From NCBI GenBank assembly GCA_016783485.1, contig JADHWM010000003.1:1-59314 (forward strand): DNA of 59,314 nucleotides, written 5' to 3'. Numbering within the stretch: the stretch's first letter is position 1; the number at the start of each line of letters is the position of its first letter. The stretch comes from Candidatus Bathyarchaeota archaeon. Lineage in GTDB: Archaea; Thermoproteota; Bathyarchaeia; TCS64. The translations under genes and the position numbers were made by a program. The notes under the pieces are model-generated. The model had not been told where the DNA came from and did not search any database. It worked only from the letters and a program-made list of their open reading frames with translations. This document shows, one piece after another, positions 24,758 through 44,332 of the stretch.

Positions 24758-24837
24758 GCTTCACCCGATGCATCATTACTCTCGATCGGGAAAGATAAGG
24801 GGATATCCCTGACCGCTTCGATGGCGCTCGCTGCGGG

Positions 24838-26370
24838 TTATTCAATGATGATTCTCTCGAGGCGGGTCTGATTCACCACGTAGATCCGGATGCCGTGCAC
24901 CTCCTCCTTTAGTAACAGCAGGTCAGGATATTCCCGGCTCACCACCGCCCAGACGGGGTGGGATCGGCTTCCGCAGTGGAGCCACAGGGTCACGTTGTAC
25001 CTGGCAAACCATCTGGCGTATCTCGCGGGGTCGGTCACTCCGTAGTAGTGGGGGGCATAATGATTACTCAGGAGATCCTCGGGGCTTACACCCCACATTG
25101 AGACGAGCCTATAGTTCGCCGTTGGATGGTCGCAGACGATGGTCCCGTTAACGTAGTGGCTTGATGCCGCATCCGCGACATCGAAGATGTCGAGGGTCTC
25201 GCCCTGAAAAGTCCCGTAGGCGGGGAGGATGGCGTTCATGGTTATCAGTTCTAGCACCAAAACCGCGACTGTAAGGGGGATCCACCTGGCATGGCTCCGG
25301 GACACCCTCAACTCCACTCTATAGATGAGATAGGCGAGGAGCACTGATCCCACCGCAGCCAGGGGCAGGCTCATCCTGAGCATGTAAAGGAGATGCTTCG
25401 GATCCCCCGGGTAGTACGTGATGAAGATGGGCCCGAACACCACCGCGGATATGAGGAAGAAGAGGAAGAGATGGTATCTCCTCCATCGGCGCCGAACCAT
25501 GTGGGCAAAGGAGCCTGAGAGGGCGACGGCCGAGCCCAGGAGGAGCTGGCCCGTGGCCTTCCCGGGCCAGGCGCGCAGCTTGTCTCCCAGCCACATCGTC
25601 ATGAGGCGGGGGAGGGGTAGGCCCAGCCCTCGCTGGGTCCAGCCTCCGAAGACGCTGAAGAGGCTCCAGTAGAGGGGATAAATGGCGTTAGAGGTCCAGT
25701 GCCTGAACAGGAAGCAGAAGAGGCTCATGACTATGAGCCAGCTGAGGGCGAAGGCTTGGATCCTCTGAGAGGCCCTCTCGATCGCGACGGCCCCGGCGAC
25801 GAATATCAGGGAGACGAGCCAATACTCGGTCCTAGACTGCGCCGCGAGGGCGAGGAACAGCCCCGACCAGCCGGGCTTGGTGTTGAAGAGGGCGAGGGAT
25901 AGGAGGGCGAAGAACAGGGCGAGGGGTTCCTGGAGGGCGACGATGTCGAATATCCCGGCCACGGGGTATAGGGCGTAGATCAGGCCGGCGGAGAGCCCGA
26001 CTCTCCAGTAAAAGTTGTCCCGCCCGATGATGTAGATCAGGTACGTGTTCGCTCCGGCGAGAATGATGTTCAGTATTCGGTAGGGCAGGATGGAGGCTGT
26101 AGACATCACCCCTAGGAGGAGGGTCTGAACCAAGTGGGGTACGACCCCCCAGTAGTACTCGCACCCGTTGAGGTCCCAGAGCCTCCCCCTCTGGAGGCCG
26201 ATCTTGAGCGTCATGTAGGATATCTGCCAGTGGTGGTAAGAATCGGAGTTCCAGTCGACGGGGATGGAGGCCCAGACGAGGATGCGCGGTATGAAGGCGA
26301 TCAGGGAGAAGAAGATGTACGTGTATCTGGGGTTCGAAAGGATTGGGTAGAGGCGTTCGTCGAACCCCAT
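24838..26370 (-). CDS. Polytopic membrane protein, GT-C/PMT-like glycosyltransferase
   Basis: Many TM helices, an acidic first loop (DWNSDSY), and QEPL and SRTE motifs. Confidence 0.65.
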   Translation of the reverse strand: MGFDERLYPILSNPRYTYIFFSLIAFIPRILVWASIPVDWNSDSYHHWQISYMTLKIGLQRGRLWDLNGCEYYWGVVPHLVQTLLLGVMSTASILPYRILNIILAGANTYLIYIIGRDNFYWRVGLSAGLIYALYPVAGIFDIVALQEPLALFFALLSLALFNTKPGWSGLFLALAAQSRTEYWLVSLIFVAGAVAIERASQRIQAFALSWLIVMSLFCFLFRHWTSNAIYPLYWSLFSVFGGWTQRGLGLPLPRLMTMWLGDKLRAWPGKATGQLLLGSAVALSGSFAHMVRRRWRRYHLFLFFLISAVVFGPIFITYYPGDPKHLLYMLRMSLPLAAVGSVLLAYLIYRVELRVSRSHARWIPLTVAVLVLELITMNAILPAYGTFQGETLDIFDVADAASSHYVNGTIVCDHPTANYRLVSMWGVSPEDLLSNHYAPHYYGVTDPARYARWFARYNVTLWLHCGSRSHPVWAVVSREYPDLLLLKEEVHGIRIYVVNQTRLERIIIE

Positions 26371-26427
26371 CGCATACTGTCATATATTTTTGAATGTTAT
26401 TAAGGTGCTCTTTAGCTCGCGCCTGCG

Positions 26428-26683
26428 AGCGGGGGCAGTTCCTCGTTGCCACCGGGGGTGGGGGTATCTGGCTCATAAGGGGGCCCTGAAAGAGTGGCGT
26501 CTTAGGGCGGATGACTCCTCTGGGAGCCTTCCTGAGCGGAAACTTGTACGAAAATGATAGCTCTTCGCCCTGACTCGTCCTTTCATGGGCTCCCCTCGTC
26601 ATGAGCGTCGCTTTCATAGTTATCGTCGAGGAGCCTGAACCGAGGGAAATCTGGCGTCGTAGCCTGTTCAGAGAGCTTCCGCT
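26428..26683 (+). ncRNA. Candidate structured non-coding RNA (about 256 nt, rod-like), family not recognised
   Basis: Nested helices 26428-36/26675-83, 26439-45/26641-47, 26471-76/26601-06, 26478-92/26580-96 and 26502-11/26564-73. G-U pairs favour the + strand. TTATTAAG lies at 26397, about 30 nt upstream. Confidence 0.55.
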
Positions 26684-26725
26684 AGCGTTGAGAAATTAAA
26701 AAATTAGAGTTCTGATAATAATATA

Positions 26726-27106
26726 TCAGGAAATGGCCAGCTTGAGGGCTTCCTTTGTCTCCGCTGGAAAGTCCTTCATAAGGCTAGATATCACGGTCTG
26801 CGCGACGTACTTTTTGAAAGAAGTCTCGTTCAGCTTTGGCCTGTAGACCCTGTGGTAACCGCCCTTGCCTGTCCGCTCATCGTAATCGAGGACGCCCTCG
26901 TCCACCATTGCGTTGAGGAAGTTGATTATGGACGCGCGGCTGATTGTCTTACCCACAAGCCTGTCGTTGACGTGGCTCCAGACCTCTCTCGAGATGGCGC
27001 CCTCCTCGTTTCTTTCCCAGACGAACCTCAAGGCTTCTTCCTGGTAGTCACGGAAGACCTTTGAGAGACCGTCGCTCGCCGGATTAAATATCAGTGTCAT
27101 ATTCAA
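26726..27106 (-). CDS. Winged-helix transcriptional regulator (BlaI/MecI/CopY-like)
   Basis: LRFVW, SREVW, SRASIINFLN.MVDEGVL and GKGGYHRVYRP motifs. Confidence 0.8.
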   Translation of the reverse strand: MNMTLIFNPASDGLSKVFRDYQEEALRFVWERNEEGAISREVWSHVNDRLVGKTISRASIINFLNAMVDEGVLDYDERTGKGGYHRVYRPKLNETSFKKYVAQTVISSLMKDFPAETKEALKLAIS

Positions 27107-27390
27107 GTCACCGAATGTCTGCTCATCGTTGGGGTTTAAATATAAACGTTTTGTATGAGATAACTGATATTTTCTACTCTTTGTAAAAAACTATTATTTT
27201 TTTTACATTTTTCTTGCATAGGAGTGGTTTTATATCTTAAATATGAAAGTAAAGATTAAAAAAACGGCATTCCCAAGATTCCGACGTTTTAATGAAATAT
27301 TAATATAATGATGCCGGCCCCTCATCCGGTGGTTTTCCGCACATCGAGGAACGGGGTGGGGTTATCGTGATCGTTAACCTTTCCCAACAG

Positions 27391-28248
27391 TCACGGGGGC
27401 GTAAGCGGATCGATGTTATCGGTTGCTATGGAGCGGAGCATCTCCTGGGGGATCTTGAGGTCTTCGTGGGTCGCATACCTGTTGATGTTCAACATCATAT
27501 CCATGTAGGGTCTCTGGCGGACCCCCGGGTAGTCTGTCCCAAATATGAGCTTGTTGATGACTCCGAGGTTGAGGGCGGTGAGGAGGTCTTTCCAGAGCAT
27601 GAAGGGATAGCTCGGATGGTTGATGTTCCCGTAGGGCCAGCTTATATCACACCAAACGTTGGCGTGTTTCCGGGCGACATAGAGGGTCTCGTCCACCCTG
27701 GGATAGCCGAGGTGGGCGAGGACGATCTTGAGTTCGGGGAAGCTGTAAGCGACCTCGTCGATGAGGGCTGGATCCGAGTGTTTCAGCAGGTCCCCGGGGT
27801 CGGGCATCCCCGCGTGGTGGAACATGATGGGCATCCCGATGCCCGAGGCGGCCTCGTAGACCGGGAAGACGTCCGGATCGTTCACGAAGTATCCGTCGGT
27901 GGTGGGATAGAGCTTGAGCCCAAAGAGTCCGAGTTCCCCCCTCTGCTTCAGGACCTCGTCCCCTGACCCCCCGTGTGTGGGATTGACGTAGCCGAACCCG
28001 ATGAGCCTGTCGGAGGCCCGGGAGACGAAGGCTGAAACCTGTTCCGGGGATGTCCGTTTGTCGGATAAGACGACGGCTTTCTGGAACCCCGCCTCATCGA
28101 GGTCGGCGAGGAACTCCTCCAGGGTGACTGAGACGACGGTCGGGTTCTCGATGTCTGCGTACTCCGTCATGGAGATGTGGCAGTGATAGTCCACCCTTGG
28201 GGAATCATTGCTGGTTGCAGGCTTGTCTGCCTGCCTTGTAAGAGTCAA
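27391..28248 (-). CDS. Amidohydrolase_2 family protein
   Basis: DYHCH, GLKLYP, LAHLG and FGTDYP motifs. Confidence 0.9.
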   Translation of the reverse strand: MTLTRQADKPATSNDSPRVDYHCHISMTEYADIENPTVVSVTLEEFLADLDEAGFQKAVVLSDKRTSPEQVSAFVSRASDRLIGFGYVNPTHGGSGDEVLKQRGELGLFGLKLYPTTDGYFVNDPDVFPVYEAASGIGMPIMFHHAGMPDPGDLLKHSDPALIDEVAYSFPELKIVLAHLGYPRVDETLYVARKHANVWCDISWPYGNINHPSYPFMLWKDLLTALNLGVINKLIFGTDYPGVRQRPYMDMMLNINRYATHEDLKIPQEMLRSIATDNIDPLTPP

Positions 28249-28397
28249 ACTTGTTCATCCTAGCTAGATGAAAACGTGGCTTAAGGATTTTGAGGGTCTG
28301 AGGCGACTTCTTCCGTCCTTCGGAATATACTATTAACTTGGCAATTAGTGAGCTTTTTCTTCTCTTTTCCTCTTTTTATAAAACAAAACGTATAAAT

Positions 28398-28443
28398 ATT
28401 AGGCTGGACTAAACCTGTTGGTACGGATTTAGGTAAACCTAAA
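28398..28443. promoter_or_regulatory. Two DtxR/MntR-like operator palindromes upstream of the FTR1 gene
   Basis: TTTAGGTAAACCTAAA (28428-43, 7-bp inverted arms) and ATTAGGCTGGACTAAA (28398-413), just downstream of TATAAA at 28391. Confidence 0.7.
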
Positions 28444-28445
28444 AA

Positions 28446-29318
28446 GTGATTCAAATGTTCGAAGGACTGATTCCTAGCCTACTCATCACGTTCAGGGAGG
28501 CTCTCGAGGCTGCGCTGATCGTGGCGATCATGGTCACCTACCTCAAGAAGGTGGGGAAAGGCGAGCTGACCCGTTACGCTTACATGGGCTCCGGGGCGGC
28601 CGTGGCGATAAGCCTCGTCCTGGGCGTCGCGATTCAGATGGTCTACGGCGGGATGAGCAAGGTTGCCGCCGAGCTCTTCGAGGGGGTCGCATCTCTGACC
28701 GCGGTGGCCGTTCTCACATACATGATCTTCTGGATGACCGAGCACTCGAAGAACATCCGGGGGGAGCTCCAGGACAAGATCGACGTCGCCGTGAGCCAGG
28801 GGGAGCTCTACAGCGTCGCCTCCCTCGCGTTCGTGGCGGTCTTCCGGGAGGGGCTAGAGACCGTGCTCTTCCTCACCACTACGTTCTTCCAGGACGCGGC
28901 GGGGACAATCATAGGCGTTGTAGTTGGCGCTGCGATAGTGCTTGTGCTGGCGGTGCTCCTGATGAGGGGGAGCTACCGGCTGGACATCAAGAAGTTCTTC
29001 GGGTACACCAGTGTCATCCTCATCGTCTTCTCGGCGGGGCTCGCAGGATACGGGGTCCACGAGCTCATCGAGGCCGGGGAGAACCTTGGTCACGACTTCG
29101 GCGTTCTCGGTGAGAAGCCATTCGACATCAACCCGCCGGTGAATCCCGACGGGACCTACCCCGTCCTCCATGAGAAGGGGGTCGCGGGCTCGATTCTGAA
29201 GGCGCTGGTAGGCTACGACGGGAACCCGGAGTGGTTCAGGATCATCGTCTACTTGGGCTACTGGCTCGTCGTAGGATCATACGTCTTCAGGACCTACGGT
29301 AAGCCCAGGGATATCTAG
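28446..29318 (+). CDS. FTR1/EfeU family iron permease
   Basis: Two REXXE motifs (REALE, REGLE) in a multi-TM protein. Confidence 0.93.
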   Translation: MIQMFEGLIPSLLITFREALEAALIVAIMVTYLKKVGKGELTRYAYMGSGAAVAISLVLGVAIQMVYGGMSKVAAELFEGVASLTAVAVLTYMIFWMTEHSKNIRGELQDKIDVAVSQGELYSVASLAFVAVFREGLETVLFLTTTFFQDAAGTIIGVVVGAAIVLVLAVLLMRGSYRLDIKKFFGYTSVILIVFSAGLAGYGVHELIEAGENLGHDFGVLGEKPFDINPPVNPDGTYPVLHEKGVAGSILKALVGYDGNPEWFRIIVYLGYWLVVGSYVFRTYGKPRDI

Positions 29319-30601
29319 GCCGCATCGGTGAACTGGGGGAGGAGGTCTGCGTGGGCCTCCATGAGGGCTTTGAACGCCTTTTTACCCGCCTCCAGGTCGT
29401 GGACCACGGGGTCAGCGAGGATAGCCTGGAGGGCGAGGTCATTGTCTCCGTGAACCCCGGCCTCGACAACGAGGTCAGTGACCAGGGTCTGGATGTTGCA
29501 CAGGGCGGCGAGGCCCTCGGGGAGCTCACCGACGCCGATGGGGTTTATGCCGCTGCTGTCGACGAAGGCCGGGGTCTCGACGATGGCCCCGTCGAGGAGG
29601 TTGGGGATCTGGCCGTCGTTGGGGAGATTGGCCTGGAGCTCCGTGTGGCGGCTGTTGGAGACGATTCCCCCGATGATGTGCATCATCCTCTCCCCTGAAA
29701 ACCTGCCCTTGACGTCGAGGGGCTCATCACCCTTGATGATTCCGTTGATCTTCCTCCAGTTCCTCTCCCCGTGCTCCTCCATCCTATCGATCCAGTTGAA
29801 GCCCCGGGCCTCATCGGGGCAGGCCTGCCAGGCGTAGGCGAGGTACTCCCCGGCGTGGTTGTCGTCGGTGCTGGGGTAGAGCCCGAACTTATTGTACAAG
29901 GCCCTGCAGAGGGGCTGGAACCCCGGGGTCTTCTCGAGGGCATCGTCGAGGAGGGGGTAGGCGTCGTCGCCGTTGGTGAGCCGGAGGTGCTTGAACCAGC
30001 TGAAGTGGTTGAGCCCGGCGGAGACTCCGTCGAGGAGGCTCTTAGGGACGCCTATGATCTTCGAGAGGCGTTCGAGCTGCCCCTCCACCTCGTGGCAGAG
30101 TCCCACGACCTTGATGTCGGTGTAGCGGTCGATGGCAAGGCAGAGGCGGGGAACCGGATTGGTATAGTTGAGGAGGAGGGCATCGGGGCAGCAGTCCTCC
30201 ATGTCAGAGCAGATGGCGAGGACGGGAGGGATGTTCCTCATGGTGTGGAAGAGGCCCCCCGGACCCCCGTTCTCACCGATCACCTGCTTGATCCCGAGGT
30301 TGAAGGGGATCTCCCAGTCCATGCGCCAACGGTTCATCCTGTCCACTGCGATGGAGAGGACGACAAAGTCGGCGTCCGCGAGGGCGTCCTCCCTGTCGGC
30401 GGTCCACTCCACCTCGATCCCGCTCCCTGTGACCTCGACGATCCTCTCTGCGAGGGAGCCCATCTTCTCAAGCTTCGCCTCGTCGATGTCGTAGAGGATC
30501 AGGTTGGCTCTGCAGAGGGCCTCGATATTGGAGGCGTCGAGGACGGAGTTGTATCCGAAGACGCTGCTCCCTGCCCCGATGAGGACTATGCGGGGGGTCA
30601 T
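29315..30601 (-). CDS. Glycoside hydrolase family 4 (alpha-galactosidase/glucosidase)
   Basis: IGAGS, ENGGPGG, NYTNP, GLCH and GLNH motifs. Confidence 0.92.
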   Translation of the reverse strand: MTPRIVLIGAGSSVFGYNSVLDASNIEALCRANLILYDIDEAKLEKMGSLAERIVEVTGSGIEVEWTADREDALADADFVVLSIAVDRMNRWRMDWEIPFNLGIKQVIGENGGPGGLFHTMRNIPPVLAICSDMEDCCPDALLLNYTNPVPRLCLAIDRYTDIKVVGLCHEVEGQLERLSKIIGVPKSLLDGVSAGLNHFSWFKHLRLTNGDDAYPLLDDALEKTPGFQPLCRALYNKFGLYPSTDDNHAGEYLAYAWQACPDEARGFNWIDRMEEHGERNWRKINGIIKGDEPLDVKGRFSGERMMHIIGGIVSNSRHTELQANLPNDGQIPNLLDGAIVETPAFVDSSGINPIGVGELPEGLAALCNIQTLVTDLVVEAGVHGDNDLALQAILADPVVHDLEAGKKAFKALMEAHADLLPQFTDAA

Positions 30602-30647
30602 GAAGATCAGGTAGTGGGTAAATCTAGGCCATAAAACGTTTGAGGAG

Positions 30648-31226
30648 TCAGAAGAGCTCGATGCCGAGGAAGGCGTTGGCTAGGAAGATGATGCCGAAGA
30701 GGATGAACAGTGCGGCGGCGACGTATCTCAGGTAGCGCTCCGGGACGAGCTTCATCAATCCTTTACCTATGACCACCCCGCTCCCGGTGATGAGGGCGGC
30801 CCCCAGAAGGATACCAAGGAACACCATGCCGGGGTTCCCGTATCGGGCGGCGAGGACGAAGGAGGCGAACTGGGTCTTATCCCCGAGCTCCATGAGGGAG
30901 ACGAGGCTGAACGCCGATGCGAGGGCACCCCTCCCGGACTCCTCGACCTCATCCCCGTCGTCCTCTCCCCTGAGGGTCAGCACCCCGAAGATGAGGAACA
31001 GCCCCCCTGAGATCACGTTGATCCAGAAGGAGGGTATCAGGTCGGCTATGAAGCCCCCCACCAACACGCTGGCCCCGTCCACCACGGCGAAGGCCCCGAG
31101 GGCCCCGGCGAAGACGAGGAGGGGCTTGTGCTTCATGGATAGTGTGATGACGGCGATGTGGGTCTTATCCCCGAACTCCATGAGGGAGAAGAGGGTGAAA
31201 GAGGCGATGAGGGGCGTCAGGTCCAT
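30648..31226 (-). CDS. TMEM165/GDT1 (UPF0016) cation transporter
   Basis: Two E-x-GDKT motifs; start taken at ATG 31226. Confidence 0.92.
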   Translation of the reverse strand: MDLTPLIASFTLFSLMEFGDKTHIAVITLSMKHKPLLVFAGALGAFAVVDGASVLVGGFIADLIPSFWINVISGGLFLIFGVLTLRGEDDGDEVEESGRGALASAFSLVSLMELGDKTQFASFVLAARYGNPGMVFLGILLGAALITGSGVVIGKGLMKLVPERYLRYVAAALFILFGIIFLANAFLGIELF

Positions 31227-31362
31227 TTCCCTGTGACGGGGGATGCATCGAATAAAATTCTTTTGCACCCGATGAATGCACTCGCATATATTGTCAAACA
31301 GATTCGTTGCGTGGGTCTCAGAGAGAATAAACCCGGATTTTCGTTAAAATGAATGCCGGAGG

Positions 31363-31518
31363 CTACCGATTGTTCTCACCGGGGATTAGGACACCGCAGT
31401 AGAGGCACACCACAGTCCTGGGGACGACGTGGTCGCAAGCTTCACACAGGTAAAGTGCCTCGTGGATAGGCTTCGTCACATCGATGTTTTCCAGGAGAGC
31501 CTCTTGGGCCATGGGCAT
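31363..31518 (-). CDS. Small Cys4 zinc-finger protein (51 aa)
   Basis: MPMAQEALLENIDVTKPIHEALYLCEACDHVVPRTVVCLYCGVLIPGENNR, with a TTTTATAA box just upstream. Below the ORF-track cutoff. Confidence 0.6.
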   Translation of the reverse strand: MPMAQEALLENIDVTKPIHEALYLCEACDHVVPRTVVCLYCGVLIPGENNR

Positions 31519-31673
31519 CGGGTGAAATCCTCATCCGGTGTTATAAAAGGATCGCAGGCCCCGGGGCGGGAGAGGCGACTGAAAGTGTAAGGCCGATGTT
31601 CATCTGCGTTTGTGCTTCACAGTGACGGCTACGCAGCCAATTCTTATATGGGAACTCGAGTTGAATTGGAAAC

Positions 31674-32486
31674 ATGAGGCCCCAACCCATCTACACCCCG
31701 AAGGGGGACGCGCAGATGCGGGTGGCCTGCTTCGTCTCAGGCTCGGGGACCAACGCGAGGCGGATCATCGAGAGGTCCCTCGAAGAGGACTCCCGCTACG
31801 AGGTCTCCCTGATCTTCACGGACGTCCGGGACGACGTCCTCCGGAAGAGCGGGGAGAAACGGTGCAGGGCCAAGGACATCGCAGACGAGTATGGCATATC
31901 CTACGTGTGTGAGGACATCCGGGACTTTTACAGAGAACGGGGGGTGAAGAGGACCGACCTCAGCCTCCGCCCCGAGTTCGACCGCCTCGTCGTCGAGAAG
32001 TTGGCCCCCCACGGGGTCGATCTCGTCGCCCTCGCGGGCTACATGAGCATCACCACGCGTCCCCTCCTCGACGCCTACCAGGGGAAGATGGTTAACGTGC
32101 ATCCCGCGGACCTCTCCATCATGGAGGGGAACGAGCGGAAGTACGTCGGGATCCACGTGGTGAGGGACGCCATCCTCGCCGGGGAACGCGCGCTCAGGGC
32201 CAGCACCCATGTGGTCCGGGAGAAGGTGGACCACGGGGAGGTCCTCGTCGTCTCCGAGCCCGTTCCCGTCAGTCTACCGGAGGGCGTCGTCCTGGACGAG
32301 CTAGCTCAGGATAAGAAGCTCCTCGGGGCTATCGTCGATGAGCACCAGGAACGGCTGAAGAAACGGGGGGACTGGGTGATCTTTCCATTGACGATCCAGA
32401 TGATAGCTGAGGGAAGATTCGCCCTCGACGGAGCCGGAGGCGTATGCGTCGATGGGGCTCCCGCTCCCGGGGGATACAGGCTCTAG
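31674..32486 (+). CDS. purN: Phosphoribosylglycinamide formyltransferase
   Basis: VSGSGTN, LAGYM, NVHPA and H...VDHG motifs. Confidence 0.85.
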   Translation: MRPQPIYTPKGDAQMRVACFVSGSGTNARRIIERSLEEDSRYEVSLIFTDVRDDVLRKSGEKRCRAKDIADEYGISYVCEDIRDFYRERGVKRTDLSLRPEFDRLVVEKLAPHGVDLVALAGYMSITTRPLLDAYQGKMVNVHPADLSIMEGNERKYVGIHVVRDAILAGERALRASTHVVREKVDHGEVLVVSEPVPVSLPEGVVLDELAQDKKLLGAIVDEHQERLKKRGDWVIFPLTIQMIAEGRFALDGAGGVCVDGAPAPGGYRL

Positions 32487-32572
32487 GGCTACGGGAGGGC
32501 TTTCCCGATCTTCTCGGCTATTCCGGGGGTAGCTCTCAGACAGCCTGAAATAAAGTATCAGTTGATAGGATT

Positions 32573-33670
32573 ATGAGAGCTTGGGTTGTGAATCCTGTGA
32601 GCGGATCCTATTATCCAACGAGTTGGGATGACTGGGAGACCCGGCGCCCCGAGGAGCTGGGCCTGGACTCGGCGATGGTGGATGAGGCGATCCACTACGC
32701 CTCGGATCACGAGACACCTTTCGCCAGGGATCTGGCGAGACGCATCGCGACCTCCGTGGCGGGGAAGAAGTGCGACGACGGGGAGGTCCTGGGGCCGACG
32801 AGGCCGCGGGGCGGAGTCAACGGCCTCGTGCTGAAGGACGGTTACATCGTGGCCGAGTGGGGGGAGACTAGGCGTGTGGACATGACTTTCAGCGTATCCA
32901 AGAGCTACCTCTCCACGTGCGCGGGCCTTGCCCTGGATGACGGCCTCATCAGGGATGTTCATGACCCTGTGGGGCTCTACGTGAAGGAGGGGCACTTCGA
33001 CTCCCCTCACAACTCCAAGATCACATGGCATCACCTCCTCCAGCAGACCAACGAGTGGGACGGCACCCTCTGGGACAAGCACTACTCGGCTGGGAACACC
33101 GACGACGTCCTCCTCGAGCCCAAGGAGCCCGGCACCTACTACGAGTACAACGACGTCCGGGTCAACCTGACCGCCCTCTCCCTCCTCAATGTCTGGAGGA
33201 GGCCCCTCCCCCGTGTGTTGAAGGAGCGGGTCATGGATCCCATAGGGGCATCCTCGACGTGGAGGTGGCATGGTTACAGGAACTCTTGGGTCGTCATGGA
33301 CGGCCTCAGGGTGCAGTCGGTGAGCGGAGGAGGCCACTGGGGCGGAGGGATGCACATCTGCTCCAGGGACCAGGCCCTCTTCGGGCTCCTCTTCCTCCGC
33401 AGAGGCAGGTGGCTGGACCGGCAGCTCATCTCCGAGAGATGGATCGATATGGCCACCGCTCCTGGTGATGTGAACCCCGTTTATGGGTACATGTGGTGGA
33501 TGAACCACGAGCGCTGGCCCAGCGGCCCCGAGTCGGCGTTCAGCGCCATCGGCGCCGGGGGCAACTACGTTTGGTGCGACCCGGAACACGACCTGGTGAT
33601 CGTGACCAGGTGGATAGACCCCCCGGAGATCGATGGGGTCGTCGAGCGTGTGCTCTCCGGGTTGAAGTAG
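32573..33670 (+). CDS. Serine hydrolase, beta-lactamase class C-like family
   Basis: FSVSKS (SxxK), YEYND and YGYMWW motifs. Confidence 0.88.
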   Translation: MRAWVVNPVSGSYYPTSWDDWETRRPEELGLDSAMVDEAIHYASDHETPFARDLARRIATSVAGKKCDDGEVLGPTRPRGGVNGLVLKDGYIVAEWGETRRVDMTFSVSKSYLSTCAGLALDDGLIRDVHDPVGLYVKEGHFDSPHNSKITWHHLLQQTNEWDGTLWDKHYSAGNTDDVLLEPKEPGTYYEYNDVRVNLTALSLLNVWRRPLPRVLKERVMDPIGASSTWRWHGYRNSWVVMDGLRVQSVSGGGHWGGGMHICSRDQALFGLLFLRRGRWLDRQLISERWIDMATAPGDVNPVYGYMWWMNHERWPSGPESAFSAIGAGGNYVWCDPEHDLVIVTRWIDPPEIDGVVERVLSGLK

Positions 33671-33673
33671 GGG

Positions 33674-34612
33674 TCACTGGCGGGAGAAGAACTCCATCTG
33701 GTAGGAGTCCTCGTCGAGGACCCCGAGCCTCTTCATGGTGACCCTCAGGGTGGCCGTGTTCTCCTTGCTGAACTCCTGGAGGGGCTTCCGGGGCTTCCCC
33801 ACGTTCGCCCCCACCATGTTCAGGGCGGCCTTGAGGGGCACGGGGTTCGTCTCGGCGTACATCATCCGCATCAGCGGGAAGTAGGTGAAGAATGTCTCCC
33901 GGGACTTCACAACGTCTTCAAAGTTCTCCCAGGGCTTCGAGATGACCGCGAGCTCCCGGGGGGCGATGGAGCCCGTCACGTTGCTGGTGCCCTTCCCCCC
34001 TGATGCGAGCACCGGGAAGATGAGGGCGTACGTGGGGCAGTCGCAGCAGAGAACGTTGAGCCTGCCCCGGGTGAGCTCCACGACCCTGAGGACCCCGTAG
34101 GGGTTGGGCCCCGCCTCCTTGAGGGCCACGATGTTCTCCAGATGAGCAAGACGGGCCACGGTCTCCGCCTCCACGTTCACCCCCGTCCTAGAGGGGTTGT
34201 TGTAGATCACCAAGGGTAGGTCCACCGCCTCGGCGACGTCCTTGAAGTACCTGTAGAGGGCGTCCTGGCTCGGCCTGATGTAGCCTGGTTGGACGATGAG
34301 CCCCCCGTCTGCTCCGGCGTCCTTGGCGTACCGGGCGTTCTCGATAGTCTGCTTGGTGGTGGACGCCGAGACCCCGACTAGGGCGGGGACCCTGCCCTTC
34401 GCCGCGGCGAGGGATTCGTCGATGATCTTGGTCCTCTCGTCTGGGCTCAGGAGGGTCGCCTCGCTGGTGGAGCCGAGGAGGAGTATCCCGTCGCTCCCGT
34501 TCTCCACCTGGAAGTCGACGAGGCTCCGTAGGATGTCGTAGTCTACCTCGTCGTCATCGTTGAAGGGGGTGACCAGGGCGGGCCAGGATCCCGCGACGTC
34601 GAGCTTCTTCAT
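33674..34612 (-). CDS. Dihydrodipicolinate synthase (DapA) family aldolase
   Basis: ALVTPF, GSTSE, YNNPSRTG, LKEA and NPVPLK motifs. Confidence 0.88.
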   Translation of the reverse strand: MKKLDVAGSWPALVTPFNDDDEVDYDILRSLVDFQVENGSDGILLLGSTSEATLLSPDERTKIIDESLAAAKGRVPALVGVSASTTKQTIENARYAKDAGADGGLIVQPGYIRPSQDALYRYFKDVAEAVDLPLVIYNNPSRTGVNVEAETVARLAHLENIVALKEAGPNPYGVLRVVELTRGRLNVLCCDCPTYALIFPVLASGGKGTSNVTGSIAPRELAVISKPWENFEDVVKSRETFFTYFPLMRMMYAETNPVPLKAALNMVGANVGKPRKPLQEFSKENTATLRVTMKRLGVLDEDSYQMEFFSRQ

Positions 34613-35541: not shown

Positions 35542-35643
35542 GGGACAACCTACGTCTCCCTATTGTTTATGTCTTGAGAGATGGTGAGCCCTGGATAGGT
35601 GAAATAAAAAAAGGAAAATAAAATTTACGGAAAGTTTGTAGAT

Positions 35644-38013
35644 TTACGGAAAGTTTGCCATAATGTCGTCGATTGCTGTACCGAGAGTTGCGGAATAGTC
35701 GCTCCCACCCTCGATAAGGTATCCGCCCATGTTTGTGTGCTGGTTGAAGGCTGCTAGTCCATTGGCGTCATCTGCTGTGATCAGTTTAGCTCTGTGGCAT
35801 CCGCCACATGCTCTCGCAGCAGGACCGGTGATATATACCGGCAAGTCGCCGATGTTTCTGTCTTCAACTGAATCAGTGCCAGACAAAGCGCCAGGTAGCG
35901 ACTTTGACTGATCCGGCACCTCGTATGTGCCTTCAATGTGGCATGACTCGCAGTTTGTAATTCCATGTGTGGGATACGGGAATCCGATGTGATGCTCATA
36001 GTGCAAGGCTTCGACTTCATCCTCGAAATCGATGTCGCCGATATCGAACGCCTGCATCGAGTGTATGGCATGGACGTAGGAGTCGATGGATCTCGACTGG
36101 AGTTCCAGGTGAGAGCCGCCGCTCAACGTTACGTGGCACAGCCTGCAGACAACGATACTCCCGCCTCTATCCGGCGAGTGGTAGTTCGTTGCTAGCGCGT
36201 CATGGCAGTTTTCACATTTCTCAACGTCCACGATGGGGCTGAAGTAGTCATCATCGAAGTCATTAGCAGTTAAGTCAAAGGTTCGGGAAGGAGCGTCGAG
36301 TGAAACCTCTTCGTCCTCCGCATCATACAGCATCGGTATTATTCCGATTTCCAGTCTCTTTATAGTACCATCAGCGATCAGGTCAGCCCATTCTGTCAAG
36401 TCATGCGTAACCGTCCATGCACCTGCGGCTTCCGATATGGTCTCGAAGTAGGCATGTTCGGTGCCAACTTCATATGCCCCTTTGGGTAAGTCACCGTCAG
36501 AGCGCGAAATTACACCATTGCCACTGCTGTCATAACGGTCGTGTCCATTGACGATGAAGTCTTTTGTGTCGTAGCCATAGAGGCCTATCAACACCTCTGG
36601 CACGATATCCGCTGAATCAAGCCCCCCGGCAGTTCCGGATGCACTGAGTTCAATGGTAAGTTCGTTGCCCGTTATAGATGCATCATCGATTGTGACGACT
36701 ATGGCGTCAGAGTACTTCAGACCCTCCTCGGCGTAGATCATCGTGTCATAACCGGGGTGAATGTCTTCGAAGTCCCCGAAAGCGCTTCCATCACTATGGC
36801 AGGCTGCACAATCTACAGTCTCTAAGACCATTTCGCCATGAATTGCTGCGGGCAGTAAGGTTGCTAATCCCGTCTCGGCAGTACCATACTCTTCGGAGCC
36901 AGTCACTGGGTGACAGCTCTTGCAAGTAGGCCCATTAAAGTTATCTTCCGTCAATATGACGTCAAGTTTGCCTTCGTGGCAGACTATACAGTTTGACATT
37001 GACTGAGGATATGGGAACTCCATGGCGTGAGACATGTGCACGTCGTTCATTAGTGTCGGTGCGTATTCTAACGAGGCTAGCTGCTCAGCTGTAAAGATAG
37101 ATGTGTCCTCGTCCGAACCATACCATTCAATCGCCTTTACAGGATCATCGACCAAAAGCTGCCATTCGTAGTGACCGCCTTCAGTGTTCTCCATGTGGCA
37201 GGCTTTGCACATGATGAAATCAGTTGTGGGATCATCGTTAACCTGGGTGACATAGTAGCCGTGCTTTAGGAATGGTACCGAGTGGCATTTCTCACAGCCA
37301 TCAACGTTGGCTGCAGAAACTTCATCAATGCCGTCTCCAGTTTCAAGCAGGCCTCCGATTGGATATTTGGCTTGCTGGACGCGAGAATTAGGCAATCTGG
37401 CGACGCCTCCATCATAACCGTATACCATGATGGCGCCATCCATATCGTCTAAACTGCTAGCTAACCTGGAGTCGTCACTGGTCAGGGTACTCGTGACCAC
37501 ACCAGTGGTGCTGTCAAAGGTCATATCCCCAGTCAGGGCCATTCTATCATCAGCCGGCTCGTACTGGAAAGCGGTCCCTGTCCACGGCACAAAGTACATG
37601 CGCACTCTGTCTGCGTCGGCGGGATCAAAAGGTTCACCATTCATTTCCATTACGAAAGTTATGACGTGCGTGCTTGGAGCTACATATTCGTAAGCCAAGT
37701 CTTCAACGGTAATTACGCCAACCTGATTCAATTCATCATAGGCGTCCTGGTGATCTGCACCAGCGGTTTCATGACAAACGACACAGGATTCTGGTTGGGC
37801 AGTAGGTGTATATGAGACTCCTGGGGGTCCAGCTGGACCAGTAGCACCGGTTGCACCCGCGGCGCCAGCGGCACCCGCGGCACCATCAGCACCATCGGCA
37901 CCCGCGGGACCAACAGGTCCTTGGGGCCCCGGACTAAGTACTCCGTATCCGATTGCTAGTATTGCTATTACGATTGCTGCAATTGCTAGTGTTTTGGAAT
38001 CAACATTACTCAA
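35644..38013 (-). CDS. Decaheme c-type cytochrome, OmcA/MtrC-like, with N-terminal TM anchor and collagen-like linker
   Basis: Ten CxxCH motifs (CVVCH, CEKCH, CKACH, CIVCH, CKSCH, CAACH, CENCH, CRLCH, CESCH, CGGCH) and a (Gly-X-Y) repeat after a TM helix. Likely start is TTG 38013, downstream of a TTTATA box; the ORF track starts at 38085. Confidence 0.9.
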   Translation of the reverse strand: MSNVDSKTLAIAAIVIAILAIGYGVLSPGPQGPVGPAGADGADGAAGAAGAAGATGATGPAGPPGVSYTPTAQPESCVVCHETAGADHQDAYDELNQVGVITVEDLAYEYVAPSTHVITFVMEMNGEPFDPADADRVRMYFVPWTGTAFQYEPADDRMALTGDMTFDSTTGVVTSTLTSDDSRLASSLDDMDGAIMVYGYDGGVARLPNSRVQQAKYPIGGLLETGDGIDEVSAANVDGCEKCHSVPFLKHGYYVTQVNDDPTTDFIMCKACHMENTEGGHYEWQLLVDDPVKAIEWYGSDEDTSIFTAEQLASLEYAPTLMNDVHMSHAMEFPYPQSMSNCIVCHEGKLDVILTEDNFNGPTCKSCHPVTGSEEYGTAETGLATLLPAAIHGEMVLETVDCAACHSDGSAFGDFEDIHPGYDTMIYAEEGLKYSDAIVVTIDDASITGNELTIELSASGTAGGLDSADIVPEVLIGLYGYDTKDFIVNGHDRYDSSGNGVISRSDGDLPKGAYEVGTEHAYFETISEAAGAWTVTHDLTEWADLIADGTIKRLEIGIIPMLYDAEDEEVSLDAPSRTFDLTANDFDDDYFSPIVDVEKCENCHDALATNYHSPDRGGSIVVCRLCHVTLSGGSHLELQSRSIDSYVHAIHSMQAFDIGDIDFEDEVEALHYEHHIGFPYPTHGITNCESCHIEGTYEVPDQSKSLPGALSGTDSVEDRNIGDLPVYITGPAARACGGCHRAKLITADDANGLAAFNQHTNMGGYLIEGGSDYSATLGTAIDDIMANFP

Positions 38014-38284
38014 TGTAATCGAGACAAAAGGTTCAACTTGAGTATAAATGTCTTGTTTCCGAATCCCATTGGTGAAAGAACCCATTGTTGCTGTTTTCGC
38101 AAGGATTAAGGAATTGTTATGATGTCTATGATAATAATTCGCTCCAAATACGATATATTCTGATTGTTAAATGCCAAGTAATTTTCCTTCAAAGAAAAAA
38201 GAAAAGGCCATCGTATTATAACAAAATGCATCTCTGAGGGCCACTCCAAGTCGACTATAGGCTCTCTCGCGTAATCCTCAGAAT

Positions 38285-39665: not shown

Positions 39666-39725
39666 TCCTGATCCCTAGGGTTAAGGATGGCGGGTGATTA
39701 AATCGTTTTCCAACAACCTCGACAT

Positions 39726-40050
39726 GAACAAAGGACGCGAGAAACGGCGACGAATCCTCGTCTCAAACTCGTCTTTGTTTCCGCTAATGTATCACTTTAC
39801 GTTCAAGGGGGGCCTCGTCACCGTTACCGGTGAAAAAGCCCGGGGAAAGACTTGAGGCGCCTCCACCGGGGGCTCGGGGGCGACATACTGGGGCTCCACG
39901 ACCCCCTGGGGTTCTATGAGCCCCCAGAAGCTGTCGCGGGTATCGGAGTATATCCCCCTAGTCTCGCCTAGGAATCCCCTGAAGTATAGGGGACCTGCGG
40001 AACCATCGGATCCGCGATGCCGTGAATCGTTTCTCCGTTCCTTTCTTTCG
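39726..40050 (+). ncRNA. Candidate structured non-coding RNA (about 325 nt), family not recognised, strand uncertain
   Basis: Terminal pairing 39730-46/40028-44, several GC-rich hairpins and a possible pseudoknot; ATTAAAT at 39697 and a pyrimidine tract at 40039-61. Confidence 0.5.
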
Positions 40051-40182
40051 TTCTTCCTTGTCAAAACGCCCACATCCATATTCAAACGAGTGTTTCAATA
40101 GGAAAAGGGATGTATAATATAAAGATATTGCTTGCATGCACAAACCTTTTTATACTTTTTAAATGAGTTTTAACATATTGCA

Positions 40183-40770
40183 ATGAAGGCTATGAAAGTC
40201 GTTAACGATCCTGAAGAGTTCCAGCTTTTAGCAGATGGCACCCGCAGAAAGATCATCTTCCTCCTGAGGGCCACCGAGATGACGGTCAGCCAGATCGCTT
40301 CAACCCTCGGGGTCACCCCCCAGGCGATCTACCACCACATCAAGAAGCTCCAGAACGCGGATCTGGTCATCGTGGAGCGAGAGGAGCGGGTGGGCCATCT
40401 CATCGAGAGCTACTACAGGGCCACCGCTGAGGCGTTCCTGTGCAGCGTCGGGGTCACCCCCAGCGGCAGGGAGTTCTTCGAGAAGCAGACCAAGACGACC
40501 CTCGACGCCCTCGTCAAGATCGGCTTCAAACTGGAGTACGACGAGGACGACATTCAGTCCCTCATCGAGAAACAGGACGAGCTCCTCAAATGCTGCAGCG
40601 AGAAGGACTTCGAGGAGAACCTGACGGACACTCTGGACGACCTCGACAACAACACTCTAGCGTTCGTCAAGGACTTTGGGAAGCTGCTTGCGATGACGGA
40701 TGAAGAATTCGAAAAGCATCAGCAGCTGAATAGAGAGTTCAGAGACGCGTTAAAGTCTCTGGAAAAATAA
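40183..40770 (+). CDS. ArsR-like HTH transcriptional regulator
   Basis: LADGTRRKI, TVSQIA..LGVTPQAIYHHIKKL and ESYY motifs. Confidence 0.88.
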   Translation: MKAMKVVNDPEEFQLLADGTRRKIIFLLRATEMTVSQIASTLGVTPQAIYHHIKKLQNADLVIVEREERVGHLIESYYRATAEAFLCSVGVTPSGREFFEKQTKTTLDALVKIGFKLEYDEDDIQSLIEKQDELLKCCSEKDFEENLTDTLDDLDNNTLAFVKDFGKLLAMTDEEFEKHQQLNREFRDALKSLEK

Positions 40771-42243: not shown

Positions 42244-42373
42244 AAAGCACCAAGTCGCCCGGCATCCATGGATCTCCGTATTAACCATCTAAACAAGCGG
42301 TGTTTTTCACTTTCTGGCTGGGTTCCGTGAAAAACGTTTTCTGGGTGGTCCGGGAGACTGTAAGGCGGTCAAT

Positions 42374-43807
42374 TTGGTCGACTTACTGATCACTGGCGGT
42401 GTCGTCGTCACGATGGGCCTTGGTCGAAGGGTCATCGATGATGGAGGGGTCGCATTAGAGGGGAGCCACATTCTCGATGTGGACACCTCAGCCGAGCTGA
42501 CATCCCGATACAAGGCGAAGAGAGTCATCGATGCCACCCACAAGATCGTGATGCCCGGCCTCTTTGACGGCCACAGCCACGCGGGCCACGGCCTCCTCAA
42601 GAGCCTCGGCTATCACAACCAGCTCTGGTACAAGGCGTGCGAACAGATCTACGCTGAGGGCTCCCCCCCGGGGTTCTGGCGCGCCGAGGCTCTCCTCACC
42701 TCTCTGGAGCGCCTCAGGTTCGGGGTCACGTGCAGCCTCACCTTCCTAGGGGGCGGGGACAGCGTGATGAGGACCGACGACCCGGTCTACGGTGTGAGCC
42801 ACTGCGAGGCCGTAGAGGATGTGGGGATCAGAGAGTTCCTCGCTGTGGGCCCCCGGAGGCCCCCTTTCCCCCGGAAGTACTCCCGTTGGGACGGGGCGAC
42901 CAAGACGGATTTAATGGTCTCCTTCGAGGACCAGCTGGCGACGAGCAGGGCGCTCATCGAGGGCTGGGACGGAGGGGCCGACGGCAGGGTCCGGATCGCA
43001 ATGATGCTCCCCACGTCTCACCCCGAGCATGGAGGCTTCACAGGGGAGGAGCTCGAGGAGCTCAAGTACATGGCGGGGGCCGTCCGGAGGCTCTCCAAGG
43101 AGAAACGCGTTCTCTTCACCCAGGACGGCCACACCAAGGGCACCGTGAAGTTCGCCCACGAGGAGCTGGGCCTCCTAGGCCCCGACGCCCTCCTGAGCCA
43201 CTCCACCGACCTTACCGACGAGGAGATAGAGCTCTGCAGGAAGACCGGCACTCGGATAGTCCACAACCCCAGCGCCGTCGCCTCGATGACCGCCCGGTGC
43301 CCCGTCCCCGAGCTCCTCGACGCGGGGGTCACCGTGATGCTGGGCTCTGACGCCTCGGCCCCCGACAGGAGCTTCGACATGTTCCGCCACATGTTCCAAT
43401 GCATGAGGTACCACAGGCGCCACTACAGGGACGACAGGGTCCTCCCCCCGGGGAAGGTCCTGGAGATGGCGACCGTCGACGCCGCGAAGGCGATGGGCCT
43501 AGGGAATGAACTAGGCTCTCTGGAGCCCGGGAAGAGGGCCGACGTCATCCTGGTGGACGCCCGTAAGCCCCACATGTACCCCCTGAACATGGCTGCGGAT
43601 CGAGTCGCCTACTACGCCAACGGGAACGACGTGGACACGGTCATCGTGGACGGGGAGGTCCTCATGGAGGGCTGCGAGGTGAAGACCGTCGACGTCGACG
43701 AGGTCCTGGACCTGGCCCAGGAGGAGGCTGAGGCCATGATCGACAGGAACGGTCTCCGGCACCTCATGGACTACACCGAGGGGTACTGGGGCCGGAGCAG
43801 GTACTGA
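42374..43807 (+). CDS. Metal-dependent amidohydrolase (MTA/SAH-deaminase-like)
   Basis: MPGLFDGHSH, HNP, LGSD and GSLEPGKRAD motifs. Confidence 0.9.
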   Translation: MVDLLITGGVVVTMGLGRRVIDDGGVALEGSHILDVDTSAELTSRYKAKRVIDATHKIVMPGLFDGHSHAGHGLLKSLGYHNQLWYKACEQIYAEGSPPGFWRAEALLTSLERLRFGVTCSLTFLGGGDSVMRTDDPVYGVSHCEAVEDVGIREFLAVGPRRPPFPRKYSRWDGATKTDLMVSFEDQLATSRALIEGWDGGADGRVRIAMMLPTSHPEHGGFTGEELEELKYMAGAVRRLSKEKRVLFTQDGHTKGTVKFAHEELGLLGPDALLSHSTDLTDEEIELCRKTGTRIVHNPSAVASMTARCPVPELLDAGVTVMLGSDASAPDRSFDMFRHMFQCMRYHRRHYRDDRVLPPGKVLEMATVDAAKAMGLGNELGSLEPGKRADVILVDARKPHMYPLNMAADRVAYYANGNDVDTVIVDGEVLMEGCEVKTVDVDEVLDLAQEEAEAMIDRNGLRHLMDYTEGYWGRSRY

Positions 43808-43816
43808 GGTGAAGGG

Positions 43817-44332
43817 ATGGAGAAGACCCTGAGCTCACGGCTCCTACACGAGGGGGGGAACTTCGACTTCCTCGTCGACGAGGTGGAGCTCCCCAACGGC
43901 CACGTCACCCAGAGGGACATCGTCCGCCACCCCGGAGCAGTGGCCATCGTCCCAATACTCGGCGACGGTAGGGTCGCGCTCATCAGGCAGTTCCGATACG
44001 CAACCGGGAAGACGCTCCTCGAGATCCCCGCGGGGACCCTGGAGCGGGGGGAGCCGCCCCTAGAGTGCGCTGCGAGGGAGCTGAGGGAGGAGACCGGCTA
44101 CGAGGCCGAGGAGCTCGAACCCCTCCTCAGCTGCTTCATGGCCCCGGGATACAGCGACGAGGTGATCCATTTCTTCGTGGCGAGGGGCCTAAGGGCCGTG
44201 GGGGACGACCCCGAGATCGACGAGGAGATAACCCTGGAGCTCCACAGCCTCGAGGAGGTCCGGAGGATGATCGAGGAGAACGTCATCGAGGACGCCAAGA
44301 CCATCGTGGGCATTCTCTCCCTGAAAGGGTGA
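43817..44332 (+). CDS. NUDIX hydrolase (ADP-ribose pyrophosphatase-like)
   Basis: Nudix box GTLERGE...AARELREETGY; QFRY and DAKT motifs. Confidence 0.93.
   Translation: MEKTLSSRLLHEGGNFDFLVDEVELPNGHVTQRDIVRHPGAVAIVPILGDGRVALIRQFRYATGKTLLEIPAGTLERGEPPLECAARELREETGYEAEELEPLLSCFMAPGYSDEVIHFFVARGLRAVGDDPEIDEEITLELHSLEEVRRMIEENVIEDAKTIVGILSLKG

Follow-up and report, generated by a model that had tools for sequence, protein, structure and literature searches.

Introduction

The cytochromes MtrC, MtrF, OmcA and UndA of Shewanella (4LM8, 6QYC, 3PMQ, 4LMH and 3UCP) carry ten haems of the bis-histidine type and are composed of two β-domains alternating with two multihaem domains. They are tethered to the cell surface. 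The haems of MtrC follow a 5+5 order, the protein is anchored through a lipobox, and it works with a porin of the MtrB type. In the accessible text of one study, a CX8-15C disulfide of MtrC is described as conserved in all Shewanella clades and tied to flavin binding (PMC4486940). Here, we describe a decahaem cytochrome gene of a bathyarchaeon, located at 35644..38013 on the minus strand of the 59,314-nucleotide contig JADHWM010000003.1 (contig C67 of genome G000, assembly GCA_016783485.1). The whole contig was analysed and is called the window below.

Bathyarchaeia are widespread in sediments, and their energy metabolism is still debated. Genome G000 comprises 2.13 Mb in 116 contigs, and is estimated to be 70% complete and 3.3% contaminated. 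Its decahaem cytochrome has in common with the Shewanella proteins the ten motifs for bis-histidine-type haems, the alternating domains and, as we infer, the tethering to the cell surface. It differs from MtrC in its 1+5+4 haem order and in the helix plus collagen-like spacer that takes the place of the lipobox. Its host is an archaeon, and a search of the 70%-complete genome gave no porin of the MtrB type. We propose, with a probability of about 0.6, that the protein is an exported, membrane-tethered conduit of the MtrC type, which passes electrons outward to extracellular acceptors or to a partner.

Domain organisation and fold of the decahaem cytochrome

A single open frame of 813 codons, counted from ATG 38085, extends over 35644..38085 on the minus strand and ends with a stop codon at 35644–35646. 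The start codon is probably TTG 38013, which gives a protein of 789 amino acids. This start is preferred because the N-termini of close homologues begin there, because an identical database protein (P0001) has 789 residues, and because the anchor cassette shared with an 8-haem gene on contig C110, described below, opens with the same TTG.

The ten CxxCH motifs contain all 20 cysteines of the protein and are positioned at residues 101 / 264, 293, 366, 388, 426 / 624, 647, 712, 760 (numbering of the 813-residue frame). They form the layout of one, five and four haems separated by spacers that an initial annotation of the window had read, with two haem-free stretches of ~160 and ~195 residues. 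Haem motif 1 (CVVCH, residues 77–81 of the 789-residue form, 37771..37785, minus strand as all parts of the gene) precedes the first β-rich domain and is accompanied by a nearly invariant histidine at residue 88. The first haem-free β-rich domain (residues ~97–235, 37309..37725) is equivalent to MtrC domain I, judging by the secondary structure of the model and by alignment. It is followed by a complete pentahaem domain with haems 2–6 (residues ~240–420, 36754..37296), which matches positions 6–175 of the 176 of profile PF22113. The second haem-free β-rich domain, the equivalent of MtrC domain III (residues ~425–590, 36244..36741), has no cysteine. The C-terminal tetrahaem domain with haems 7–10 (residues ~596–789, 35647..36228) matches positions 3–132 of PF22113. 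It corresponds to the pentahaem domain minus its last haem motif, according to the profile coverage and to the structural alignment, which ends at MtrC residues ~630–652. The translation contains a VHAIH motif and two FPYP...NCxxCH motifs, in line with the VH.IH-type and YP...NCxxCH motifs mentioned in the initial annotation.

Profile PF22113 (MtrC/MtrF domain II/IV) matches the protein in two stretches with 86.7 bits, against a Pfam gathering score of 30, and generic multihaem models of Pfam match as well. The NCBIfam model for OmcA/MtrC, TIGR03507, covers residues 353–793 with 122.3 bits, which is below its cut-off of 209.3. An AlphaFold2 model computed from 144 family sequences has a mean predicted local distance difference test score (pLDDT) of 91.3 and a predicted template-modelling (TM) score of 0.84, and is confident outside the spacer. 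The 15 best matches of the model in a Foldseek search of the PDB are all MtrC, OmcA, UndA or MtrF, with E-values from 2.6e-17 to 5.1e-13. Matches ranked below them are unrelated β-sandwich proteins with a TM score of 0.1. Structural alignment by VIA-align gave Z-scores of 11.3–13.1 over 488–539 residues, in which residues 97/99 to 785 of the model run collinear with residues 45/47 to 630/652 of MtrC at 12–17% sequence identity. Residues 97 to 420 align with MtrC domains I and II of entry 9eov with a Z-score of 11.4. The predicted fold is thus of the MtrC/OmcA type.

The N-terminal haem peptide (residues ~70–96) is modelled with a pLDDT above 90 and falls outside the collinear alignment, which stops where MtrC has its tenth motif. 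Conserved extra histidines in the family alignment number five in the middle domain, which has five motifs, and six in the C-terminal domain, which has four. Profile matches of motif 1 itself are weak, with 4.1 bits to haem 10 of MtrC and 6.3–7.1 bits to haem 5 plus domain III. We interpret the cytochrome as a probable haem-order variant of MtrC, in which the C-terminal haem peptide of MtrC is placed at the N-terminus. The N-terminal peptide most likely supplies the fifth haem of the C-terminal domain, in a shift of one peptide that resembles a circular permutation.

No cysteine occurs outside the CxxCH motifs, either in the protein or among the conserved columns of the 144 family members, and the CX8-15C disulfide of domain III is therefore absent. 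The protein has the ten CxxCH motifs, the four-domain fold and a PF22113 score above the gathering threshold. It lacks the 5+5 haem order, a TIGR03507 score above cut-off, the domain-III disulfide and the lipobox cysteine. Because these last four defining features are wanting, we do not file the cytochrome under the curated OmcA/MtrC family. The initial annotation had described it as OmcA/MtrC-like and had made the assignment depend on a related fold. The fold, as seen in the 15 best Foldseek matches and in VIA-align, is indeed MtrC-like, and the resemblance extends to PF22113 but not to the haem order, TIGR03507 cut-off, disulfide and lipobox. The profile comparison that it proposed was accordingly split, with PF22113 passed and TIGR03507 missed.

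Membrane anchor and collagen-like spacer

The N-terminus carries a predicted signal-anchor transmembrane helix at 37936..37992 (residues ~8–26 of the 789-residue form) with a hydropathy of 2.55 over 19 residues, and AlphaFold2 models residues 6–26 as a helix. The anchor region has no cysteine, no lipobox and no obvious cleavage site. A class III signal peptide of the pilin type was set aside by eye, since the N-terminus has no Lys/Arg-Gly/Ala cleavage motif. The helix is followed by a collagen-like spacer at 37813..37929, composed of 13 unbroken Gly-X-Y triplets (residues 29–67, or 53–91 in the 813-residue numbering). A transmembrane anchor ahead of about 12 such triplets had been noted initially, and the count is now one higher.

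The spacer passes the Pfam Collagen profile PF01391 narrowly, scoring 27.8 bits where 27.2 are required. NCBIfam models of SclB, SclA and Lcl match weakly (E-values 2e-4 to 4e-3), in all cases within the Gly-X-Y repeat. Position X of the spacer is rich in alanine (PPPAAAAAAAPPV), and its DNA is built of 9- and 27-bp tandem repeats at 37853–37916. The pLDDT of the spacer is low in the monomer model. A prediction of three copies of residues 1–240 scored 0.29 against a mark of 0.32, a comparison without controls that weighs neither for nor against a trimer. The collagen triple helix rises by ~0.29 nm per residue. The 39 residues of the spacer would therefore span ~11 nm if they were triple-helical.

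Gly-X-Y runs of at least five triplets ahead of haem 1 are present in 38 of 70 full-length family members. Lipobox-like cysteines occur in 32 of these 38, including all 30 from Chloroflexota, and the other six are archaeal, with a helix and no cysteine. Only 6 of the 32 full-length members without triplets have a lipobox. None of the six Planctomycetota members with ordinary cleavable signal peptides has triplets, and these include the closest bacterial relatives of the archaeal clade. Thus, Gly-X-Y runs occur almost only in membrane-tethered members of the family. The runs comprise 5–27 triplets with a median of 11, and the median distance from their end to the first haem cysteine is 11 residues. 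Over the 441 triplets of the 38 members, proline occupies 68% of X and 7% of Y positions, and alanine 61% of Y positions. The trait changed state at least 15 times on the family tree of 70 members. The glycine periodicity and the position preference of these sequences fit a collagen helix, and the co-occurrence of the spacer with permanent membrane tethering supports a stand-off function.

Insertion of the gene into an archaeal genome

The contig is genuinely archaeal by its gene content. It encodes topoisomerase VI B, at 552.6 bits for a cut-off of 274, and the universal archaeal KH protein arCOG04150, at 191.6 bits for a cut-off of 114.2, which substantiates the archaeal host named initially. 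Genes for Topo VI A and for Rio1, aTrm56-like and TFE-alpha-like proteins on the same contig all score below their own cut-offs.

Four genomes of the same genus (G001, G002, G003 and G004) served for comparison over the 18 kb that surround the gene. The cytochrome gene is missing at the syntenic site in all four, and the flanking genes are kept in order. The extra segment of 2593 bp (35615..38207) holds the gene, its upstream region and 29 bp past the stop codon. It is bounded by two copies of an A-rich, imperfect 14-bp direct repeat, at 35601..35614 on the left and 38194..38207 on the right, which are identical at 12 of 14 positions. In G002, the closest relative with 88–94% nucleotide identity, the flanks abut in a clean junction with a single copy of the repeat. 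The site is occupied by ~90 bp in G001, ~139 bp in G004 and ~267 bp in G003. The last 16 nucleotides of the gene are duplicated 3 nucleotides downstream (35623..35657, minus strand), next to a T-rich tract and immediately within the inserted segment. The duplication may have been left behind by the recombination event through which the gene was acquired. Gain in the lineage of G000 is the simplest reading, because the gene is absent from four relatives and has a lower guanine-plus-cytosine (GC) content. Loss elsewhere, by deletion between the repeats, is a possible alternative.

Contigs from two DNA sequencing runs of different studies match the window without a single difference between 35000 and the interior of the gene, and again between 37959 and 38800. 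Because the assembly may stem from one or the other run, no more than one of them counts as independent. The contigs bridge both junctions, and their only breaks fall within the Gly-X-Y repeat. At least 99% of the sampled words of the locus are present in DNA runs of three studies, and 86% in one run of a fourth study. An assembly chimera at this locus, the risk raised by the initial annotation, is unlikely given the bridged junctions.

Other stretches of the window are also missing at syntenic sites in G002, namely 32537–33683, 39713–40450 and 42368–43817. They include a gene for a hydrolase of the β-lactamase fold (32573–33670) and an open reading frame (ORF) of 477 amino acids (42374–43807).

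Presence of the gene in RNA libraries

In four metatranscriptome runs of one study, 56–59% of the words of a 3.8-kb stretch around the gene are present. RNA contigs of two samples cover 35628–37945 and 35628–37971 at 99% identity or more, and the flanks have zero cover. The whole gene is thus covered except for its repeat-rich 5' end. In both samples, cover ends at 35628, 16 nucleotides past the stop codon and beside the T-rich tract. The other contig end, at 37945–37971, was considered as a transcript start and found uninformative, as DNA contigs break in the same repeat (37934–37988). Since the flanks are uncovered, plain carry-over of DNA is argued against, and the gene is apparently transcribed. 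Expression data had been suggested as a check at the outset, and the contigs of these two samples are in keeping with expression.

Cytochrome machinery elsewhere in the genome

Genes for c-type cytochrome maturation are present on contig C86 of G000 and encode CcmF (PF16327, 151 bits; PF01578, 124 bits), CcmH, CcmE, CcmC and an ABC ATPase. The initial annotation had staked its reading on such a system. A haem o synthase gene lies beside them (locus L022, 8387–9253; 255 bits, cut-off 210). The same contig encodes an 11-haem cytochrome together with an iron-sulfur (FeS) protein with a twin-arginine translocation (TAT) signal (DsrO-like, 213 bits, cut-off 200) and a membrane protein of the NrfD family. 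It also encodes 12-haem and 6-haem cytochromes and a Rieske protein with cytochrome b. The window itself, as the initial annotation had stated, has no porin, quinol oxidase or ccm gene adjoining the decahaem gene, but genes of the quinol-oxidase type and ccm genes are found elsewhere in G000. Contig C110 adds an 8-haem cytochrome of 778 amino acids, a 2-haem TAT protein and a 12-haem cytochrome. Within the 70%-complete genome, there is no match to MtrB_PioB (PF11854), a gene that is also missing from the window, and no haem-copper oxidase subunit I was found.

The cytochrome block of C86 spans ~18 kb (~13660–31900; L022 ~660–18900). Its edges are syntenic with the genomes of the same genus and adjoin each other in G004 and in contig C156 of G001. 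In G003, a large part of the block is kept in synteny. Within the genus, the block is thus an accessory island. CcmF_C was matched in 8 of 61 genomes searched, G000 included, all of them from one family. The c-type cytochromes are therefore patchy and accessory in this archaeal family.

Protein family and origin

A word-indexed search gave 1441 proteins at an E-value of 1e-3 or lower among 7999 scored candidates, and the 119 homologues listed besides the decahaem protein itself are 58–86% identical to it. An exhaustive search of representatives at 50% identity returned 805 proteins, 169 of them at an E-value of 1e-30 or lower. In species-representative genomes, 319 of 404 candidate stretches encode relatives. 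Among the best 80 loci, 69 are full-length with ten motifs, and the remaining 11 were set aside because they are partial, contain stop codons or have too few motifs. The 69 are labelled Chloroflexota (54), Planctomycetota (6), Bathyarchaeota (4) and five other groups with one locus each. Taken together, these sequences indicate that the family is large and mostly bacterial.

The cytochrome body, or its start, has a homologue in only three of 60 relatives of G000. G034, of the same family as G000, has a full-length copy with 70% identity. In G009, residues 21–324 are matched at 80%, followed by a gap of 100 N. In G025, a contig end holds an N-terminal piece, and the CcmF of this genome lies ~4 kb away. 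Six further relatives match the anchor and spacer alone.

A quick, unrooted maximum-likelihood tree of 75 rows was computed with the anchor and spacer removed; the genome bins behind its labels can be wrong. The protein of the window belongs to a fully supported clade with two Bathyarchaeota loci and five unlabelled metagenome proteins with N-termini of the archaeal type. The clade is nested in a Phycisphaerae/Sedimentisphaerales grade (supports 100, 99, 80 and 100) within a tree dominated by Chloroflexota. The free tree places Bathyarchaeota rows at three positions, and several independent archaeal acquisitions were considered for this reason. Constraining the five Bathyarchaeota rows into one group, which was chosen after the tree had been seen, costs 84.9 log-likelihood units, and a single clade is not rejected in the approximately unbiased test (p = 0.1). 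These sequence relationships make a bacterial origin likely, with later spread among Bathyarchaeia.

Of the 120 homologues listed, 31 (P0005, P0008, P0010 and others) fall short of ten motifs. In many of these, the gene call begins at an internal methionine just past haem motif 1, which gives proteins of ~685–690 amino acids. This suggests systematic mis-calling of starts, or truncation by contig ends, in the gene calls of the family in public data.

An anchor cassette shared with a second cytochrome

The N-terminal end of the gene is part of an anchor cassette (37914..38020, minus strand), which comprises 7 nucleotides before the TTG and the first 100 nucleotides of the gene. It is identical at 97 of 107 nucleotides (91%) to the start of the 8-haem gene on contig C110 (23469–25805; locus L023 7470–9806, minus strand). 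The 778-residue protein of C110 also starts with TTG, and its gene has a GC content of 0.523. It is composed of the same helix anchor, 13 Gly-X-Y triplets, a CarboxypepD_reg-like domain and 8 CxxCH motifs. Outside the cassette, the two genes are unrelated and their upstream regions differ too. The C110 gene has no DNA-level match in the four genomes of the same genus. A TATA-like hexamer, a putative archaeal promoter element read from the sequence, is located 30–35 nucleotides upstream of the TTG of the decahaem gene (38043..38048, minus strand), and the C110 gene has one at the same distance from its own TTG.

The helix-plus-triplets end is also found on small 3-haem proteins of G013 (locus L009) and G030 (L011), which have 225 and 219 amino acids, 8–11 triplets and 3 CxxCH motifs. 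They are another class of stalked cytochrome in the same archaeal family. The same end occurs on haem-free proteins in G031, G042 and G002. From its distribution, the anchor-and-spacer end looks like a display module of the host that was joined to an imported cytochrome body.

Contig C110 further contains, at ~17420–17580 (L023 ~1420–1580), a repeat of ~100–160 bp with dozens of matches in G002 at 70–84% identity. The repeat apparently belongs to a small family of dispersed repeats in the genus.

Composition and genomic neighbourhood

The decahaem protein is very acidic, as the initial annotation had remarked, with 132 aspartate and glutamate residues against 33 lysine and arginine residues. 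Its isoelectric point (pI) of 4.15 places it among the most acidic 2.5% of 1065 long ORFs, called crudely, in G000. Its lower GC content relative to its neighbours, another early remark, holds as well: the gene has 0.514, compared with 0.582 for the genome, 0.51–0.52 for the interval of 36–38 kb, and 0.63 and 0.61 for the flanking intervals of 33–35 kb and 39–40 kb.

The genes around it encode a hydrolase of the β-lactamase fold, a DHDPS-family protein, a 3-hydroxyacyl-CoA dehydrogenase, a tRNA-editing domain protein, an arginine-deiminase-like protein, an ArsR-type regulator and a methyltransferase. A functional tie to the ArsR and methyltransferase genes was ruled out, as both are kept in G002, which lacks the cytochrome.

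Farther along the window, positions 4000–7000 form a stretch of 3 kb with a GC content of 43–44% and short ORFs only, in a contig that elsewhere has ~60%. The stretch adjoins the sole tRNA gene, tRNA-Val at 7314–7389, and may be a remnant of an integrated element.

Proposed function and alternatives

We interpret the observed anatomy, fold, archaeal host, insertion, maturation genes and presence in RNA libraries as follows. The cytochrome would be exported and held on the cytoplasmic membrane by its N-terminal signal-anchor helix, with the (Gly-X-Y)13 segment serving as a spacer between the anchor and the cytochrome body. Electrons could leave the membrane through the NrfD/FeS/11-haem module of C86, perhaps also through the Rieske/cytochrome b pair, and hop via the small 12- and 6-haem cytochromes outside the membrane. 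The stalked decahaem cytochrome would then take them up and hand them to iron or manganese oxides, humic matter or a partner cell. Passage through an S-layer on a possibly trimeric stalk, as the initial annotation had it, would be conjectural. The gene would have arrived by horizontal transfer, since its family is mainly bacterial and the insertion is a single gene at the strain level. It would have come as a self-contained unit, with an anchor-and-stalk end that is a cassette of the host type.

Several points weigh against this proposal. We infer haem attachment, export and electron transfer, and with them the surface exposure, triple helix, electron donors, direction of flow and acceptor; the AlphaFold2 model carries no haems. 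The genome is estimated to be only 70% complete, with a contamination of 3.3%. In five of six archaeal loci, no other multihaem ORF is present in the stored flanks of up to ~6 kb. The cytochrome thus behaves as a stand-alone unit at other archaeal loci too, and because the gene is an orphan there, the proposed chain is without the support of conserved partners. A spacer of 11 nm would keep the cytochrome far from donors in the membrane, and candidate intermediates are required. The closest relative, G002, is 96% complete and has no CcmF_C match; the cytochrome trait is an accessory one that may be poorly integrated. No menaquinone gene of the MqnA/MqnD type was found in the 70%-complete G000, so the check for maturation and quinone genes proposed initially succeeded for the former only. 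RNA contigs are no proof of transcription in G000, as a near-identical gene in another host would look alike. Finally, conduits of the Mtr type are reversible, and both reduction and uptake fit.

This reversibility underlies the reading in which the same protein works in the opposite direction and takes up electrons from Fe(II) minerals, reduced humics, a syntroph or a cathode into the Rieske/cytochrome b and NrfD proteins. The Rieske/cytochrome b pair and the haem o synthase beside the ccm genes, which usually belong to higher-potential chains, speak for it. So does an archaeal tetrahaem cytochrome that, in the accessible text of the report, restored electron uptake, not export, in a Shewanella mtrC omcA mutant (PMC11176372). 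The 70%-complete genome gave no haem-copper oxidase subunit I, which leaves such a flow without a terminal oxidase in hand, and we consider this direction unlikely. Action on soluble substrates such as chelated metals, flavins and oxyanions (arsenate, selenite or sulfur species), or service as an electron store just outside the membrane, in either case without touching solids, has a clearly smaller chance. MtrC catalyses reactions of environmental substrates according to the accessible text of one report (PMC12304082), and ArsR-type and ArsM-like genes lie 2–3.5 kb away. However, the persistence of the ArsR and methyltransferase genes in the cytochrome-free G002 shows them to be unlinked, and a long spacer on a membrane tether is best suited to outward reach. 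We give very little credence to a recently acquired passenger gene with no role in the host. Its absence from all four congeners, lower GC content and lack of partner genes would be expected of a passenger, but the ORF is intact over 789 codons with all ten motifs and the conserved histidines kept, it bears an anchor cassette of the host type, it is present in RNA libraries without its flanks, and the genome has haem maturation genes.

The state of the spacer is a separate matter. The Gly-X-Y run may be a monomeric, extended spacer generated by slippage, and the cytochrome a tethered monomer, for which we see not quite even odds. The run is Ala-rich and made of short tandem repeats, it is short, and no trimerisation domain is recognisable; the repeated changes of the trait in the family are expected of a labile, low-complexity linker. 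On the other side stand the unbroken glycine periodicity of all 38 runs, whatever their length, the strong position preference for proline and alanine, as in bacterial collagen-like proteins, and the score just above the Pfam Collagen cut-off. A true triple helix would have far-reaching consequences. Three MtrC-type bodies with 30 haems would form a bouquet on an 11-nm stalk held by three membrane helices, electrons would cross the envelope of archaea and monoderm bacteria without a porin, in place of MtrAB, and Bathyarchaeia would attach a portable display cassette to imported bacterial cytochromes. Members of this very abundant group of sediment archaea could then respire minerals or humics or connect electrically to partners. 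We regard this full picture as doubtful. The outward conduit proposed above remains the best-supported reading.

Comparison with known systems

In the literature outside subscription journals and supplements, we found no paper on collagen-like spacers of multihaem cytochromes and none linking Bathyarchaeia to MtrC-type cytochromes. The archaeal helix-anchored form, the bounded insertion at the strain level, the sharing of the cassette, the RNA evidence and the phylogenetic nesting are new. Two strains with ~90% nucleotide identity that differ at this site by exactly the decahaem gene constitute a natural experiment. RNA libraries contain the gene, and the genome encodes the other members of a plausible chain for electron export. 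The presence of such a gene suggests an exchange of electrons between some Bathyarchaeia and extracellular material. If the function is as proposed, part of the Bathyarchaeia would be capable of mineral or humic respiration, or of electrical syntrophy, by a porin-independent design for extracellular electron transfer.

The decahaem lipoproteins of Chloroflexota belong to the same family, with 49–64% identity, the same 1+5+4 order and Gly-X-Y triplets between the tether and haem 1. They are tethered by a lipobox cysteine, whereas the archaeal forms appear to be tethered by an uncleaved helix. Unlike them, the archaeal copy is part of a datable strain-level insertion and has a cassette in common with another cytochrome. 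The locus thereby illustrates how a bacterial electron-export protein would be refitted for an archaeal envelope, with a helix-plus-spacer cassette in place of a cleavable or lipid-anchor signal.

The surface cytochromes OcwA of Thermincola and OmhA of Carboxydothermus, both from monoderm metal reducers, are similar in being exposed terminal multihaem reductases of cells without an outer membrane, which act without a porin-cytochrome complex, as far as the accessible text of the two reports goes (PMC6703420, PMC7829351). Their folds and families are unrelated to those of the archaeal decahaem cytochrome. The accessible text of one of these reports places OmhA and OcwA in clades of their own and contains no mention of a collagen-like spacer (PMC7829351).

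The collagen-like proteins Scl1 and Scl2 of Streptococcus and Lcl of Legionella share with the decahaem cytochrome and its family the Gly-X-Y repeat, the preference for proline at X and a stalk that leads from an anchor to a globular head. The repeats of the Scl and Lcl proteins are far longer and their anchor is a C-terminal LPXTG, whereas the decahaem cytochrome has 13 N-terminal triplets behind a helix and a cytochrome as its head.

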